Made by a program: the position numbers and the translations under genes
Shown: positions 3,995-10,211 of the stretch, in pieces
How the letters are laid out: each line of letters opens with the position of its first letter
Numbering within the stretch: position 1 is the first letter of the stretch
Source: a virus
Lineage: Duplodnaviria > Heunggongvirae > Uroviricota > Caudoviricetes
DNA: 10,211 nucleotides
Strand: one strand, 5' to 3'
IMG/VR virus record: IMGVR_UViG_2531839265_000002
The notes under the pieces: generated by a model
Database searches by the model: none
Seen by the model: the letters and a program-made list of their open reading frames with translations, nothing else
What the model was told of the DNA's origin: nothing

Positions 3995-4228
3995 TCATAT
4001 TTTTTTCAGACCGGCGGCCCATGTGCTCCGGGTAAATAACACGGGCGCAGTATCACGAATTTCGCCGCTGCCAGTGTTCATCCCGGTGTTATCTGCCGGG
4101 GCATCAAAAACGGCACGGATTCTTCTTTCCGTGCCGCCCGGATATATGCTGATTTCCGTCCCCATCGTATCCAGGATGATGTCATCCGCATCACTCATGG
4201 CCTGATCGAACAGATTATCGAACATCAT
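3995..4228 (-). CDS. FII: Head-tail joining protein, lambda gpFII-like, N-terminal part only (frame broken at an A7 run)
   Basis: MFDNLFDQAMSDADDIILDTMGTEISI..RAVFD..PVLFTRS resembles lambda FII (MADFDNLFDAAIARADETIRGYMGT..IRGVFD..SLFVRT). The in-frame ORF stops after 77 codons just past an A7 run (T7 on plus, 4000..4006). The conserved FII C-terminus (YDRVMIHGEPYQVVD..) continues in the +1 frame down to a stop at 3825..3823. Start taken as ATG 4228 overlapping the FI stop. Confidence 0.7.
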   Translation of the reverse strand: MMFDNLFDQAMSDADDIILDTMGTEISIYPGGTERRIRAVFDAPADNTGMNTGSGEIRDTAPVLFTRSTWAAGLKKI

Positions 4229-4593
4229 CACTCCCGGATTTTTTCTGCCAGACCGTCCGCCAGCAACGCAGGAACTGCGGCTTCATTAACCAGCACAACA
4301 CTGGAGGCCCGGGCAAACATCAACATTTTTCCCGTCACAGCATCACAGGCTGGCATATGCGCCGTTTTCAGCATACGCACCCGGGCGAGTCCCCGCTCAG
4401 AATGCATTCCGTCGCCGGATGCATCGTTGCCCACCTCTTCCTTCCCTGTCTCCTCCCCATCGAATCCGGCGGCCTCCTCTTCCCATTCCGCCAGGCGCTG
4501 CTCAAGATCGGCTTTTGAACCTGAAATATCTGCTTCACGCCCCAGAATAACTGCCAGCGCCTGAAGGCGTTCCGTCATCTGCTCTTTTGTCAT
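4228..4593 (-). CDS. FI: FI-like head assembly/DNA packaging accessory protein
   Basis: ATG at 4593 preceded by GGGAGAG. N-terminus MTKEQMTERLQALAVILGREADISGSKADLEQRLAEWEEE matches lambda FI (MTKDELIARLRSLGEQLNRDVSLTGTKEELALRVAELKEEL), followed by an acidic linker. In the raw sequence this ORF is read through from the frameshifted E gene. Confidence 0.75.
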   Translation of the reverse strand: MTKEQMTERLQALAVILGREADISGSKADLEQRLAEWEEEAAGFDGEETGKEEVGNDASGDGMHSERGLARVRMLKTAHMPACDAVTGKMLMFARASSVVLVNEAAVPALLADGLAEKIRE

Positions 4594-4611
4594 CAAATCT
4601 CTCCCGTGCGC

Positions 4612-4640
4612 TAAAGAAAAAGGCGGGAATATCCCGCCCC
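4612..4640 (-). terminator. Intrinsic-terminator-like hairpin plus U-tract just downstream of the major capsid gene
   Basis: On the transcribed strand: GGCGGGA-UAU-UCCCGCC (perfect 7-bp GC-rich stem) followed by UUUUUCUUU. It lies between the homology-defined E stop (4646..4644) and the FI start (4593). Confidence 0.5.
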
Positions 4641-4643
4641 GTC

Positions 4644-5673
4644 TTATTTCACCTGAACCACCACAAACGCATCCGGATCCGGCAGCACCATCAACGGCGC
4701 AGACTGCGTCATGGTATATTCGCAACCAGGATCCCCCCACTTCCTCCCAGTGTTTCGGATAACGAATCGCAGAGGTGATCCCTTCACTCAGTGCCTGATT
4801 ATCCTGAATGGCACCATAACAACGGACGCCTTCCGCCTGAGTGTTCCCCAGAATCAGTGTACCTTCCGGCAGATAACGCTGTTCATCCCCGTTTTCGTCA
4901 ACATACGTTGTCTTCGCCACCACAATTGCCAGATCGCCGTAATAACCTTTAAAGGAAACCACGGAGCCCAGGTCTTTCAGTGCCGTTTCCAGCTCAGATT
5001 TGGAGCCACGGCGGGTATCCAGTTTTTCACGGAACAGTTTAAAACCGTTCAGCATACGCCAGACCGTGCCGTCCATAATCGCGATATTGATGGTGCCGGA
5101 AGCGAAATCGCAGTACGCATCCAGATCATGCGTCGGATCGAAGGTGTCAGCATTCTGCTGTGACCATTCGCGTCCGCCAGCCTGCGTAATGTTATTGGCG
5201 GCAGAACGCCCAAAATCCACTTCCACCGTCTCAAACTGCTCGCCGCTCATGGTGTATTTACCCTGCAGAACGGCACTGACCGCCTGCATTTCTTCCACCT
5301 GCACAATCGCCTGCTCTTCCTGTTTCAGGTTGTCTGTCAGAATACGCAGACGGCGGTAAGCCGGGTCATTAAGGCGGGCCGGATCCTCTCCCGGAAGACG
5401 TTCCACTGCCTGCTGATAATCAAAGCGGTGTTTTGGTTTTACATAACCGGGACGTAACACGCGGGTTTCACCACCACGGCTGCGCAGCACTTTGCCTGAC
5501 ACCACCGGAGACACATACGCCGCGACCGGTGTTTTGCCGGTAATTTTATCCAGCATGACTTCCTGAGTATGGAAAGTGATCGTGCGACGAAAGAACAGCT
5601 CCAGAAACAGCGCACGAAATTTCACTTTCTGCTCGGTGTACCCGAGTAACTGACGCGTGGTAAATAACCCCAT
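4644..5673 (-). CDS. E: Major capsid protein, lambda gpE-like (frame broken by one extra base in a G6 run near the 3' end)
   Basis: ATG at 5673 with AAGGA Shine-Dalgarno. Strong similarity to lambda gpE across the protein (MGLFTTRQLLGYTEQKVKFRALFLELFF.. against MSMYTTAQLLAANEQKFKFDPLFLRLFF..; KPKH, AYRR, DTRRGS, LGNTQA motifs). After ..YPKHWEEVG the gpE-like C-terminus (DPGCEYTMTQSAPLMVLPDPDAFVVVQVK) is in the +1 frame and ends at TAA 4646..4644. As sequenced the ORF instead runs on to 4228, fused to FI. Confidence 0.85.
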
Positions 5674-5741: not shown

Positions 5742-6077
5742 TCAGGCGTGGCTGATGGCACTTCCCACAAATGCGTTGGCTTTTTTCACCGCATCCACAG
5801 AGTCAGGCCAGACCAGCGACTCAGTGGCAAACGTACCGCTTTTGTAGTACGTCAGCATGGACTCAGTCCCGGTAAGCGCCAGAGCCAGCACGCCCACTGC
5901 CGTTCCGGCTTTCTGACCATCCCATGCCACCAGTTTACCGGTGGCGTCATCCAGCATCAGTGGCGTCAGTGCAGGCATGGCGGCACTGATACCACTGGTG
6001 GCTTTTGCGGTATGCGCCGGATCGTTTCCGGCAAAAATGTGCACATCCGCGCGCTTTTCCGTGGTGGTTTTAATCAT
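5742..6077 (-). CDS. D: Head decoration protein, lambda gpD-like
   Basis: 111 aa against 110 aa for lambda D. Motifs NDPAHTA, TPLMLD, KLVAWDG, YYKSGTF match lambda D (SDPAHTA, TPLMLD, KLVAWDG, FYKSGTF). ATG start with AGGAGG Shine-Dalgarno. Confidence 0.9.
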   Translation of the reverse strand: MIKTTTEKRADVHIFAGNDPAHTAKATSGISAAMPALTPLMLDDATGKLVAWDGQKAGTAVGVLALALTGTESMLTYYKSGTFATESLVWPDSVDAVKKANAFVGSAISHA

Positions 6078-6115: not shown

Positions 6116-6826
6116 TTACGGCATACTCATCAGCAGGTCTTCCTCCCCGCGCCCGGCAGTTCCGCCACCGGAAACCGCACTGGCAGCATGCTGTGCCATA
6201 AAGCGATCAAAAAGTGTTTCCTGTGACGGTTGCGATGCCGCCGGCGCGGCTGCCAGTAGCGTTTTCGCCTGCGCCACCGTCATTCCCGGTTGTTCTGTCA
6301 GTGCCTGTGCAAGTTGCTCGCGCCCTTTTGCCTCCGGCAGCGCCATAATCTGATCGCCGACACTTGCAGAACCAGCAACCGGTGCCGCCGCCAGTAACGT
6401 TTTGGCCTGGTCAACGGTCATTCCCGGCTGTTCAGCCAGCGCCTGCGCGAGTTGTTCACGCCCTTTTGCTTCCGGTAACGCCATAATCTGATCGCCTGTG
6501 CCTGCAGCACCGGCAGCAGGGGCTGCCGCCAGAAACGCTTTCGCCTGCTTCACCGTCATCCCCGGCTGACCTGCCAGCATCTGTGCCAGTTGCTCACGCC
6601 CCTTTGCTTCCGGCAGCCCCATAATCTGATCACCTGTATTTGCCACACTGGCAGCAGGCACAGCAGCCAGGAACGCTTTCGCCTGCTCTACCGTCATTCC
6701 AGGCTGACCTGCCAGCATTTGCGCCAGTTGCTCGCGCCCTTTCGCCTCCTGACAATTCAGGATCCCCATCACGCGCTGATTTTCCTGGGCCACCGCTTCA
6801 GCAACGGTGAGATTTTTAACAGTCAT
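6116..6826 (-). CDS. nu3: Nu3-like scaffolding protein, nested in-frame within the 3' part of the C-like gene
   Basis: Internal ATG at 6826..6824 preceded at ideal spacing by AAGGAG (transcribed strand CGAAGGAGAATGCAATG). Translation MTVKNLTVAEAVAQENQRVMGILNCQEAKGRE.. parallels the lambda Nu3 region (..AAVAAENSRIMGILNCEEAHGRE..). In lambda, Nu3 is an in-frame internal initiation product of the C reading frame. Confidence 0.55.
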   Translation of the reverse strand: MTVKNLTVAEAVAQENQRVMGILNCQEAKGREQLAQMLAGQPGMTVEQAKAFLAAVPAASVANTGDQIMGLPEAKGREQLAQMLAGQPGMTVKQAKAFLAAAPAAGAAGTGDQIMALPEAKGREQLAQALAEQPGMTVDQAKTLLAAAPVAGSASVGDQIMALPEAKGREQLAQALTEQPGMTVAQAKTLLAAAPAASQPSQETLFDRFMAQHAASAVSGGGTAGRGEEDLLMSMP

Positions 6827-7732
6827 TGCATTCTCCTTCGTAACAGAGTCATTCAGTGCAGAAACCATCACTTCAACGGCATCTGCAGCATTAATCAGTT
6901 GATCAGCCAGGCCTGCATCAATGCCTGCCTGACCGTCATAAACGGCAGCCTCGGTATTCATCACCGCCTCTGAACTCAGCCCCGTATAAAGCGCCACCTT
7001 ATCGGCAAACATCCGGCGGGCCTCATCAATACGGCGCTGAAAATCTGCACGCACACCTGCCGGCAATGCCTGAATACTGTTGCCGTCAACCTTGTGCTGC
7101 CCGGAGTAAATCAGCGTGATGTCCACCCCTTCCTGTGCCAGTTGTTTCTCATAACTGGTGTGCGCCATCATCACGCCAATCGAACCAATTTTTGCCGTCT
7201 GCGTGACCAGCCGACGGGTACAGGCTGCCGCCAGCAACATAGCGGCTGAACAGGCCATGTCATTACACAGCGCCCACACGGGCTTCTGTTCCCGCAGACG
7301 GTAAATCATGTCAGCACAGTCAAACGCCCCGGCAGCCTGACCGCCCGGGCTGTCGATATCCAGCAAAATGCCGCGCACATCCGGATCATTCACCGCCATC
7401 TGAAGACGAGCAGTCAGACCGTCATAGCCTGTCATGCCGGAGTAAGGCCGCAGGGTACCCAGTTTATGCACCAGCGTGCCGCTCACCGGCAGAATGGCAA
7501 TGCCATTCTTCACCTGGTAACTCTTTGCCGGACGCTGACCGCCCGCCATATAGTCAGTCACCGCCAGTTGCATACCATCAGCATCAAGCTGAACAGCCTG
7601 CTGAGGAACGGCAAGGCTGCCGGCCCCTATCTCTTTACCCAGCGCGCAAAAGAAAACCCGCGCATAGGCGGGTTCCAGTAAAAGCGGCTCATTAAATGCC
7701 ATGGCGGCAATATGCGATAAATTACGACGCAT
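6116..7732 (-). CDS. C: Capsid assembly protease, lambda gpC-like (S49/SppA-type peptidase) with in-frame scaffold region
   Basis: The track ORF is open to 7864, but homology to lambda C begins at ATG 7732 (MRRNLSHIAAMAFNEPLLLEPAYARVFFCAL against ..LRNLPHIASMAFNEPLMLEPAYARVFFCAL). Further matches: PYSGMTGY, AGAFDCAD, KPVWAL, TGSIGVMMAH, ITLIYSG.HKVDGN, TEAAVY.GQ..IDAGLAD. Overlaps the portal gene 3' end by 11 nt. About 100 aa longer than lambda C because of the C-terminal tandem repeats. Confidence 0.85.
   Translation of the reverse strand: MRRNLSHIAAMAFNEPLLLEPAYARVFFCALGKEIGAGSLAVPQQAVQLDADGMQLAVTDYMAGGQRPAKSYQVKNGIAILPVSGTLVHKLGTLRPYSGMTGYDGLTARLQMAVNDPDVRGILLDIDSPGGQAAGAFDCADMIYRLREQKPVWALCNDMACSAAMLLAAACTRRLVTQTAKIGSIGVMMAHTSYEKQLAQEGVDITLIYSGQHKVDGNSIQALPAGVRADFQRRIDEARRMFADKVALYTGLSSEAVMNTEAAVYDGQAGIDAGLADQLINAADAVEVMVSALNDSVTKENAMTVKNLTVAEAVAQENQRVMGILNCQEAKGREQLAQMLAGQPGMTVEQAKAFLAAVPAASVANTGDQIMGLPEAKGREQLAQMLAGQPGMTVKQAKAFLAAAPAAGAAGTGDQIMALPEAKGREQLAQALAEQPGMTVDQAKTLLAAAPVAGSASVGDQIMALPEAKGREQLAQALTEQPGMTVAQAKTLLAAAPAASQPSQETLFDRFMAQHAASAVSGGGTAGRGEEDLLMSMP
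6241..6769. repeat. Four tandem copies of a 138-bp (46-codon) unit, diverged, inside the C/Nu3 coding region
   Basis: Unit start codons (ATG on minus) recur at 6769, 6622 (147 bp, first unit 3 codons longer), 6484 and 6346 (138 bp spacing). The plus-strand motif ccataatctgatc(g/a)cc recurs at 6343, 6481 and 6619. Encoded units read M(A/G)LPEAKGREQLAQ(A/M)LA(E/G)QPGMTV.QAK..LAAAP......GDQI. Copies are clearly related but diverged at DNA level. Confidence 0.8.
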
Positions 7733-9293
7733 CGCCTTTTTCTCCCGTTGTCTGTCGGATCTGCTGCTGAAACGTGTCCTTAATCCAGATGGGGCGGGGA
7801 AGACCCGCTGCCTGTCGCTCCTGGCTTTCACGCAGTTGCTGACGGAAAATCTCCTGATAGTCATCGCCCATCAGAGCCAGCTCTTTCTCGTACGTGCTTA
7901 AACCACCTTCAATACGCATCACCGCTTCCTGCACTTCCTTAAGGCCATCAATCGCCATGCGACCGGCACCAATCCACTCGGCACGACACCATCCGGAACG
8001 GGCCTCCCAGAATGAAAAACGGGATTTCGGCGGGCGGATCACACCGCGAATAAGAGCTTCCTCCAGCCAGCAGGCAAACATCTGTGATGCCAGCCGGCTG
8101 GCCACAAATTTTCGTTTGCCCATAAAATACCGCCACGACTCATTGGCGGATGCCCTGGCACTGGAATAACTGACCTGTGAATAATCACGGGAAAGCTGTT
8201 CATAGGACACCCCCAGTCCGGCAGCGATGTAACGTAACAGCGCCTTTTCCAGTTCAGAGAAACCATTATCTGCATTCTGCGCTGTCTGCAGATTCAGTGA
8301 ATCCCCCGGATAAAGATGCGGAATACGGACCCCACCCAGCTTTACCGTATTGGTGGCGTAATAACGCGCGTAGCCTTTCATGATGGTGTTCAGGGGATTT
8401 TTACCGCCATCTCCCACCCCGGCGATATATTCAAATGCTTTTTCCGAATCCAGCGTGGATTCAATCGTCGCGGCATACATCGCCCGCACCACCGCCGACT
8501 GCAGTTGCGTGGCCTGCAGTGTGTCGAGCATCTTGAGACGCTCCATGACAGAATAAAACTGGTTGGCCCCGCGCGTCTGCCCGTCCTCCTGCGGCTGAAA
8601 CACATGGATCATTCCCGGTCGCCCGGAGGGCAGCGTCGCCGCAATCCGCGTCCAGTTGCTGACACCGTAACCGGGCCAGTCATCTTCCTGAACATGGTAG
8701 GCCAGTGCTTTTCCGTACCGGTTGATCTCCACCCCGGCACGCATAAAACGATCGCCGGTACCATAACCGGGTGTACTGACACGTTTCGGGCTGATGGTCT
8801 TGAATTTCGTCCGGAATAATGACGTGGATTCCGTATCCCATACGGGCTGGACAAAAATTTCACCGTTAAACGTATGAACGCCCACCCCTTCACGAATAAA
8901 TTCGGTAAACGAGCGACGCCCCTCCACATCCATCGAACCAAACACAGGATCGCAATATTCCATCCACGCCGCCTCCACATCTTCAATAAAGGCATGCGAA
9001 TCAGCTTCCGACATCCCCAGCCAGCGCCAGTTGGGCCGGTAGCTCAGGCGAAACATGTGCCCGACGATATGGTCTTTATGAATTTCCACTGCATTTGCGG
9101 CAATACCGTTGTTACGGACCAGATCATCCGCACGGGCGTTACCCAGCTGAATGGAAGGTAAGAGCGCCACGTCGGCACTTTCCGGTGCAGGCAACCATTC
9201 CGCAAGCTGCCCGCCAAATCCGGTACCCCCTCCGGAATATCCCATACTCTGCCGCAATGGCTGCCCGTGAAGATCCACCAGTTCCCTGTTCAC
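7722..9293 (-). CDS. B: Portal protein, lambda gpB-like
   Basis: 523 aa against 533 aa for lambda B. Similarity throughout (GGGTGFGGQ, LLP..GNARADDLVRNNG.AANA, FNGE.FVQ..WDT, DGQTRGAN.FYSVME.LKMLDTLQ.TQLQSA, GLGVSYEQLSR.Y.Q.SYS.ARASANESW, RMAIDGLKEVQEAVM). Start is GTG at 9293 overlapping the gpW stop (GTGA). Confidence 0.9.
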   Translation of the reverse strand: MNRELVDLHGQPLRQSMGYSGGGTGFGGQLAEWLPAPESADVALLPSIQLGNARADDLVRNNGIAANAVEIHKDHIVGHMFRLSYRPNWRWLGMSEADSHAFIEDVEAAWMEYCDPVFGSMDVEGRRSFTEFIREGVGVHTFNGEIFVQPVWDTESTSLFRTKFKTISPKRVSTPGYGTGDRFMRAGVEINRYGKALAYHVQEDDWPGYGVSNWTRIAATLPSGRPGMIHVFQPQEDGQTRGANQFYSVMERLKMLDTLQATQLQSAVVRAMYAATIESTLDSEKAFEYIAGVGDGGKNPLNTIMKGYARYYATNTVKLGGVRIPHLYPGDSLNLQTAQNADNGFSELEKALLRYIAAGLGVSYEQLSRDYSQVSYSSARASANESWRYFMGKRKFVASRLASQMFACWLEEALIRGVIRPPKSRFSFWEARSGWCRAEWIGAGRMAIDGLKEVQEAVMRIEGGLSTYEKELALMGDDYQEIFRQQLRESQERQAAGLPRPIWIKDTFQQQIRQTTGEKGDAS

Positions 9294-9499
9294 AGCCCCA
9301 CTCCTGCCGGGCCACGACGCCGTCCGGATACGCCCAGCGCACTTTCCAGCTCTTCAATATACTGGCGTAGTTCACCAATCGTCGCCCGCGAATACTGAAC
9401 CTGACGCCCGTCCTTACTGACGGAAACCACAGCACGTCCGATCATCAGTTCATGTAATGCCCGGCGGGCATCACAAAGCATTTCATGCGTATAAACCAT
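9290..9499 (-). CDS. W: Head-tail joining protein, lambda gpW-like
   Basis: 69 aa against 68 aa for lambda W. ARRALHELMIGRAVVSVSKDGR.V.YSRATIGELRQYIEELE...G..RRRGPAG resembles lambda W ([56 protein letters not shown]). ATG with GGAGG Shine-Dalgarno, 2 nt after the terminase stop. Confidence 0.85.
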   Translation of the reverse strand: MVYTHEMLCDARRALHELMIGRAVVSVSKDGRQVQYSRATIGELRQYIEELESALGVSGRRRGPAGVGL

Positions 9500-9501
9500 T
9501 T

Positions 9502-10211
9502 TTATCCTCCACTCAGTGCAGCCGCGATTTCTTCCAGACTCATCTCATCGTCGTCCTGCTCATCTCTTCTGGCACGGGCCAGTGCTTCAAGATCCAGCTG
9601 CCACCGCTGAACTGAAATACGCAGGGCAGCATAGGCATATACCAGGCAGTCGAGGGCTTCGTTGCGTCGCCCTTTTTTATCCCACAGCAGTTTTACCCTG
9701 CCATTAACCACCTTCTCCACCAGCTCTTCCGCCACGATCTGACGCGCCTCTTCTTCCGAAAAAATGTCGGGGTTATCCGGAAAACGGAAGGTATACGGGG
9801 CGGCTTCACTGGCAGAGACCACCGGCAGTGCAAAACGGGCGTACAGCATTTCCTTGACGGTATCGGAGCCCACCTCACACAAAAACACACCACGCTGGTT
9901 GCGCTTTTTGGGCATGGTGATCACCGGCTTGCCGTACACCGATGCCCCTTTTATGGGAAGCACAAAAAAAGTGCCGTGTTTCCTGGAACGCTGATACACA
10001 ATGTCCTGGTCGATACCACCGGTATCCCAGCAGACACGGGAAATGGAAATTTCAGTACCGTCAGCATGACGATATTTTTTCCGGATCACCGTATCAACAC
10101 GTTTAAGGGTGTCCTCGTCTTCCGGTCGCCCCATGATAATTTGCTTATCAATCAGAAAGGCTTCTTCGCCGGGAGCCCAGCCCCACACATAAATTTCATA
10201 GCGATCTTTCT
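9502..10211 (-). CDS. A: Terminase large subunit, lambda gpA-like, C-terminal portion (5' end beyond the window)
   Basis: The reading frame is open to the window edge and ends at TAA 9504..9502. Called from its size, its position immediately upstream of the W-B-C-D-E block, and my recollection of the lambda gpA C-terminal region; no motif was aligned residue by residue. Confidence 0.8.
   Translation of the reverse strand, partial: KDRYEIYVWGWAPGEEAFLIDKQIIMGRPEDEDTLKRVDTVIRKKYRHADGTEISISRVCWDTGGIDQDIVYQRSRKHGTFFVLPIKGASVYGKPVITMPKKRNQRGVFLCEVGSDTVKEMLYARFALPVVSASEAAPYTFRFPDNPDIFSEEEARQIVAEELVEKVVNGRVKLLWDKKGRRNEALDCLVYAYAALRISVQRWQLDLEALARARRDEQDDDEMSLEEIAAALSGG

Follow-up and report, generated by a model that had tools for sequence, protein, structure and literature searches.

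The record of the phage 21 head gene operon (GenBank M81255, Bacteriophage 21) marks three repeat regions in gene 6, which it labels Tri1 box, Tri box and Tri3 box, each with the remark 'function unknown; putative'. The annotation dates from the 1990s, and we take its source to be the work of Smith and Feiss in 1993. Our literature searches on the phage 21 repeat and on Nu3 domain mapping found no paper discussing these repeats, and we know of no structure that shows how lambda-type scaffolds and the protease fused to them engage the procapsid. As for lambda itself, Nu3-Nu3 and Nu3-E interactions were reported in a two-hybrid study (PMC3224144), and Nu3 is required for incorporation of the portal protein B and is degraded by C (PMC3224144, Table 2). 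[quoted passage not shown] The locus described here adds to these systems a protease/scaffold gene with four tandem, in-frame copies of a 46-residue unit.

Gene identity and the putative nested scaffold start

The stretch of DNA that we analysed (10,211 nt, hereafter the window) covers head and baseplate genes of a prophage, all of them on the minus strand and in the order terminase, W-like, portal, C/Nu3-type gene, D-like, E-like, FI and P2/Mu-like baseplate genes. The C-terminus of the terminase large subunit (9502-10188) is followed by a W-like head-tail joining protein (9290-9499), the portal gene (7722-9293), a C-type head maturation protease/scaffold gene (6116-7732; 538 aa plus stop; PHROG 53, E=5.6e-223), a D-like decoration protein (5742-6077) and an E-like major capsid ORF (4228-5673; 481 aa), all on the minus strand. 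The C/Nu3-type gene, then, has the portal gene on one side and the decoration and major capsid genes on the other, which is the placement of C/Nu3 in lambda, and RefSeq gives the same head gene order in E. coli cq9, R1, A34 and OkiPb01676. The protease/scaffold ORF stays open back to 7864, and the start that we chose, MRRNLSH at 7732, is homologous to the lambda, phage 21 and RefSeq starts and overlaps the end of the portal gene. Residues 146-290 (6863-7297, minus strand) make up an S49 (SppA/ClpP-like) peptidase domain, matched by Pfam PF01343 with E=4.5e-33 and 114.8 bits against a curated cut-off of 24.9; the NCBIfam SppA matches to this domain were weaker and under their cut-offs. An identical 538-aa protein is present in NCBI as EHP62744.1, an S49 family peptidase of E. 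coli strain 4_1_47FAA, and the prophage of E. coli cq9 is 97.8% identical to the whole window. We hold it as nearly certain that this is the head protease/scaffold gene of an E. coli prophage whose head module is lambda-like, and that it has the nested layout of lambda C/Nu3 and of phage 21 gp5/gp6.

The putative start signal of the nested scaffold lies inside the C reading frame, where a Shine-Dalgarno-like AAGGAG (6838-6833, minus strand) is found 6 nt upstream of an internal ATG (6826-6824). From this codon (M303) to the stop runs a Nu3-like ORF of 236 aa and 24.0 kDa (6116-6826, minus strand). Protein alignment places M303 in the same column as Gifsy-1 M302, lambda C M309 and the start of phage 21 gene 6, the last of which carries an annotated putative RBS. 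In a set of 84 related loci taken from IMG/VR and GTDB, a Bryobacter MAG among them, a Shine-Dalgarno-like site and an ATG precede unit 1 in every case (84/84); the ATG sits 8-32 codons before the unit, and the core of the site reads (A)GGAG(G) or GAGG. The codons that overlap the site encode differing peptides across loci (VTKENA, HDTGGT, NVRGGT, KTKGGN, INREVN, STKGAA), and the persistence of the site and of the ATG while the encoded peptide varies makes a good comparative case for a functional nested start. Internal initiation at 6826 is quite probable and would yield a free scaffold of 236 aa. In the original prediction, an AAGGAG site 7 nt before the ATG at 6826 was taken to support separate expression of a Nu3-like scaffold; the site and the ATG are as it described and the spacer is 6 nt, not 7, and conservation of the putative signal in phage 21, in Gifsy-1, at lambda M309 and in the 84 loci speaks for its main point.

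What the same prediction missed is that the Nu3-like product exceeds the 201-aa Nu3 annotated in lambda by only 35 aa. GenBank J02459 gives lambda nu3 as 201 aa, with the start at residue 239 of C, and several phage records copy this annotation. The lambda start that aligns with that of phage 21 gene 6 is instead Met309, which has a GGAGG-type Shine-Dalgarno sequence and gives a product of 131 aa and 13,394 Da. The 13.4-kDa size of gpNu3 agrees with the Met309 product.

Other features of the window and of its relatives should be mentioned. The counterpart of the S49 peptidase/scaffold gene in cq9, whose genome is the nearest of the complete ones, has 1618 nt where the window has 1617 nt, and its annotation calls it a frameshifted pseudogene. 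The E-like capsid ORF of the window, on its part, has an extra G near 4738 (GGGGGG, versus GGGGG in cq9) that shifts the frame, and the shifted frame runs through into FI; cq9 and other relatives keep FI apart from a capsid gene of 342 aa. This frameshift is either a homopolymer sequencing error or the mark of a pseudogene and, if real, it would leave this prophage unable to build heads, so that the copy in the window may be non-functional. The lambda-type head module of the window is joined to the P2/Mu-like baseplate genes V, W/gp25, J and I (88-2867), whereas behind the homologous head module of E. coli R1 (four-unit scaffold, 86% identity) come tail genes of lambda type (minor tail U family), which indicates that the head module is mosaic for tail type.

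The repeat array and selection on its copies

Four in-frame units of 138 nt (46 aa) follow one another in exact register over 6775-6224 of the minus strand (aa 320-503 of 538). Unit 1 (6638-6775; aa 320-365, RVMGILNCQEAKGREQLAQMLAGQPGMTVEQAKAFLAAVPAASVAN) is the positional counterpart of the single unit of lambda and of Tri1 in phage 21, and units 2, 3 and 4 occupy 6500-6637 (aa 366-411), 6362-6499 (aa 412-457) and 6224-6361 (aa 458-503), respectively. A non-repeated C-terminal tail closes the protein (6119-6223, minus strand; QETLFDRFMAQH...EEDLLMSMP), and in alignments its pattern (..LDRLM....NDLLNTPV) is common to phage 21, Gifsy-1 and lambda. Tandem Repeats Finder reports a single array in the window (6243-6749; period 138, 3.7 copies, 80% matches, 0% indels, score 573). 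Residue identity within the 236-aa Nu3-like part is 0.60 at a lag of 46, 0.46 at 92 and 0.35 at 138, whereas the background averages 0.09 and none of 1000 shuffles exceeds 0.23, and the periodicity is hence well above chance. A fourfold 46-residue tandem repeat with 138-bp periodicity had been predicted, and the array program, the translation and the self-alignment all bear it out. Its siting in a Nu3-like domain was likewise right, as the array occupies the C-terminal part, homologous to Nu3, of an S49 protease gene of lambda C type (PF01343), and so was the estimate of a protein about 100 aa longer than that of lambda (538 aa versus 439 aa for lambda C, a difference of 99 aa). The limits given for the repeat, 6241-6826, need correction: 6241 falls 17 nt inside unit 4, and 6826, although correct as the internal ATG, is not the end of the array, which is at 6775.

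Twenty-six of the 46 columns are invariant among the four units. The signature I-x4-EAKGRE-x-LA-x2-LA-x2-PGMT-x3-A-x3-LAAAP delimits a module of about 40 residues, and the conserved residues sit inside the modules, while the Ala/Gly/Ser-rich linkers between them vary freely. In E. coli OkiPb01676, a four-unit allele lacks 9 nt (3 aa) of the linker that joins units 2 and 3, a deletion common to several Okinawa bovine isolates, which shows that linker length is unconstrained. PHROG 8399, a head scaffolding protein family, matches the Nu3-like part in 4 stretches. A unit HMM finds one match in lambda C (aa 361-404, 53.9 bits), exactly the one copy that had been predicted for lambda, and three each in phage 21 gp5 and Gifsy-1 gpC; the C-terminal region of the window gene is homologous to lambda Nu3 in both its core unit and its tail. 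Unit 1 is 82% identical to Tri1. An attempt to match units 2-4 with Tri2 or Tri3 was given up, because identities of 55-71% do not resolve the matter and gene conversion blurs orthology.

Structure prediction suggests that the units are separate bodies. For the 236-aa scaffold (30-sequence alignment), AlphaFold2 returned a model with pLDDT 70 and pTM 0.27, in which pLDDT is 75-81 within units and about 58-65 at linkers, and which has short helices in each unit and no fixed arrangement between units. Prediction of one unit, a check that had been proposed earlier, was more rewarding: the model of unit 3 (73-sequence alignment) has pLDDT 86 and pTM 0.62 and consists of three helices (residues 2-6, 15-22 and 29-38), with the near-invariant EAKGRE in the turn before helix 2. 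Each unit is therefore predicted to be an independent three-helix mini-domain on flexible Ala/Gly/Ser linkers. Lambda gpNu3 is reportedly described as intrinsically disordered by Medina et al. in 2011, and this sits uneasily with a confidently predicted folded unit. A phmmer search of the PDB with the 236-aa scaffold gave a chance match only (E=1.1), the 73-sequence unit profile matched nothing in the PDB but designed helical repeat proteins and a fragment of a globin, and a fold search of the PDB found no solved structure resembling the unit. Pfam and NCBIfam held no family for it, the only matches being sub-threshold ones to DUF732 and Bac_DNA_binding.

At the DNA level the four copies in the window are 62-79% identical, and their differences are concentrated at third codon positions (pS 0.49-0.65). 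Synonymous sites are near saturation, with dS of about 0.8-1.5 between copies, and in the core (codons 9-40) dN/dS between copies is 0.03-0.19. Such values indicate that the array in the window is old and that every copy is kept by protein-level selection, in agreement with the earlier proposal that copies diverged in DNA and yet still in frame reflect an old, selectively maintained expansion. When the window is compared with the R1 allele, the four units show positional orthology and are 82-86% identical.

Copy number among related genes

A profile of the four units, searched against 1.84 billion protein representatives, recovered 425 proteins at E<=0.001 (50%-identity clusters), ranging from Enterobacteria to Bradyrhizobium and a Bryobacter MAG. 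Among the best 150 of these 425, representatives of at least 380 aa comprise 57 with a single copy, 1 with two and 1 with three, and at all lengths the figures are 135, 8 and 1; no representative among those best 150 has four or more units. A 661-aa metagenomic representative with five matched stretches (P0198) was set aside as an unrelated HTH-repeat protein: a sequence of about 48 aa (type KIDxDKLKQIIxENPNMTLKQIAxIFNCS, transposase-like helix-turn-helix) recurs many times in tandem along it, and its weak match to the unit profile, over helix 2, the turn and helix 3, is probably a generic helix-turn-helix resemblance. Scanning GTDB species genomes with the unit alignment gave only 4 loci, and the taxonomic survey consequently rests on the protein libraries. 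As single-copy representatives dominate the survey, the single-copy form is widespread and probably ancestral. In the surveyed proteins, expansions are confined to enterobacterial prophages and to stand-alone proteins of Bradyrhizobium and Afipia, which have about 160-230 aa and two unit copies and lack a protease domain; the latter suggest an independent duplication in separate scaffold genes.

Within E. coli, the full-length (603 nt), three-copy gene 6 of phage 21 type is found in 1,864-1,870 of 5,426 complete genomes, and the four-unit type of the window in 105-106 of them. Unit counts in the 84 IMG/VR and GTDB loci were four in 42, three in 37, two in 3, and five and one in a single locus each. 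The lineage of the window itself includes alleles with 2, 3, 4 and 5 units, some with middle units that are 100% identical. In one such allele family a first unit A and a last unit C flank n middle units B, identical in every nucleotide, with n = 0, 1, 2 or 3. In NCBI, the three-unit allele of this family (492 aa) occurs in 106 contigs, the longest of 4.96 Mb, the four-unit allele in 16 contigs, the two-unit allele (446 aa; WP_001678595.1) in 2 and the five-unit allele (584 aa; WP_024196908.1) in 1, although some of the copy-number alleles stem from draft assemblies of short reads and could be artefacts of assembly. Units 2-4 of E. coli A34 are 94-97% identical in nucleotide sequence. Among E. 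coli variants of phage 21 type, one (P0040) has two units in total, one of them a Tri1/Tri2 hybrid, and others (P0044/45/47/48) have a truncated middle unit, as would be consistent with unequal crossing-over and internal deletion in the array. Identical middle units, copy numbers from 2 to 5, the A34 array and the hybrid unit together indicate repeated and ongoing unequal recombination and gene conversion, and some alleles, that of the window included, are stabilised by the sequence divergence of their copies.

These data bear on the claim that the array is an expansion relative to lambda and not a universal fourfold ancestral state. The prevalence of the single-copy form upholds it (57 representatives of at least 380 aa, against 1 with two copies and 1 with three), and so far the proposed survey of homologues answers as expected. 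A jump from one to four, in contrast, does not hold, because the nearest relatives, of phage 21 and Gifsy-1 type, already have three units and the step here is from three to four; nor is four a fixed number, given the alleles of 2, 3 and 5 units in the same lineage.

A possible role for the modules and comparison with described scaffolds

On balance, the explanation that we favour, as a probable though by no means secure one, is a nested protease/scaffold gene with four docking modules. The full-length 538-aa product is an S49 protease that carries the scaffold sequence as its C-terminal part, and the scaffold part consists of four tandem Nu3 core modules on linkers predicted to be flexible, followed by the conserved tail. 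The array grew by tandem duplication or unequal recombination from fewer copies (one in lambda, three in the phage 21 and Gifsy-1 type), and is still undergoing resizing, from 2 to 5 copies, in related prophages. Each module might dock independently on a procapsid partner, be it the E-type major capsid protein, another scaffold or a portal subunit, so that a chain with four modules would bind with higher valency, and the C-terminal part common to both products might carry the protease into the procapsid. Multivalent docking is the more tentative component of this scheme, and we put it forward as a possibility rather than an expectation, because it draws on analogy with other scaffolds, on the interactions of lambda Nu3 and on the need for Nu3 in portal incorporation. 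Against it, the lambda head assembles with a single module, and the coexistence of alleles with 2-5 modules suggests that valency may matter little.

The main rival to docking is that the extra units are neutral padding: one module and the tail would do the work, and the other copies would be tolerated products of unequal recombination. That lambda functions with one unit, that copy number runs from 1 to 5 among apparently intact genes whose alleles coexist, and that scaffold length is nearly equal in lambda and phage 21 (annotated Nu3 of 201 aa, gp6 of 200 aa) would all fit such a reading. Padding, however, would have decayed, whereas all four copies are conserved: the same 26 residues are invariant in every copy of the window in spite of the near-saturated synonymous sites and with the low core dN/dS given above, and the four-unit layout, with its positional orthology, is kept between alleles that are about 14% diverged (window versus R1). 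We therefore regard padding as unlikely. Somewhat less likely still, in our opinion, is that repetition tunes scaffold removal or portal incorporation, with the linkers offering the S49 protease a series of cleavage sites, or with the modules recruiting the portal. The Ala/Gly/Ser-rich composition and predicted flexibility of the linkers would suit cleavage, and in lambda Nu3 is both needed for incorporation of portal B and degraded by C (PMC3224144), but conservation resides inside the modules and not in the linkers, which are free to vary and can lose 3 aa.

A sequencing or assembly artefact, or a cis-acting repeat at the DNA level, hardly deserves credence as the source of the periodicity. 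Some related alleles do have 138-nt units that are 100% identical and that short-read assemblers could miscount. The copies of the window, on the other hand, differ at 21-38% of bases and cannot be collapsed or duplicated reads, which rules out an assembly artefact for the window, and the four-unit gene is also present in about 105 complete E. coli genomes. The codon-structured pattern of substitution suits neither an artefact nor a DNA-level repeat, and an Rfam search of the whole window gave no match.

Multivalent docking, tentative as it is, leads to a broader idea that we consider rather doubtful and nonetheless worth stating, namely that the unit of about 40 residues, EAKGRE...PGMT, is an undescribed, autonomously folding docking domain of all C/Nu3-type scaffolds, with copy number as an evolvable valency dial. 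If this were true, E. coli prophages would hold a live allelic series of 1-5 units that alters the loading of scaffold and protease into procapsids. The natural alleles with 1-5 copies already form, in any case, a series on which the importance of scaffold valency could be tested, and a predicted self-folding module, together with the Nu3 identity of the Tri boxes, makes the question of how scaffold and procapsid interact experimentally approachable. In other respects the gene is ordinary: it is frequent in E. coli, and databases already list it as 'S49 family peptidase'.

When the locus is set beside the systems mentioned at the outset, the most remote is P22 gp8, where the likeness is one of functional analogy only: in both cases a small helical element, predicted as such in the window, belongs to a largely flexible scaffold, C-terminal in gp8. 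The P22 protein has this element in a single copy and no fused protease, whereas the window has four modules and a fused S49 protease, and our PDB sequence and fold searches found no relationship in sequence or fold between the unit and the P22 coat-binding helix-turn-helix. Lambda C/Nu3 shares with the window the S49 protease, a scaffold with an internal in-frame start (putative in the window), one copy of the unit and a related tail; it differs in having only that single unit, a long low-complexity stretch from Met309 to the unit, and a C protein of 439 aa, not 538 aa. The Gifsy-1 gpC homologue (STM2605, from a Salmonella prophage) is likewise a C-type protease/scaffold with a conserved internal Shine-Dalgarno site and ATG, with three units instead of four and a scaffold part about 60% identical to that of the window. 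Phage 21 gp5/gp6 resembles the window in gene position, in the putative nested in-frame start with its RBS, in the tandem unit family and in the pattern of the C-terminal tail. Its three units, however, are more diverged from each other and not strictly spaced at 46 aa, whereas the window has four at exactly that spacing, with units 2-4 nearer to each other than to Tri2 or Tri3, and DNA identity between the two is only about 74% and confined to the protease part. The window thus has the tandem, in-frame Nu3 core units of the Tri-box type, in four copies and not in three, and its array is one more version of the repeat that the phage 21 record already marks, not a repeat of a new kind. What can be added is that the Tri boxes, listed in GenBank as of unknown function since the 1990s, are now recognised, from sequence comparison, as copies of the single core module that is conserved in lambda Nu3.
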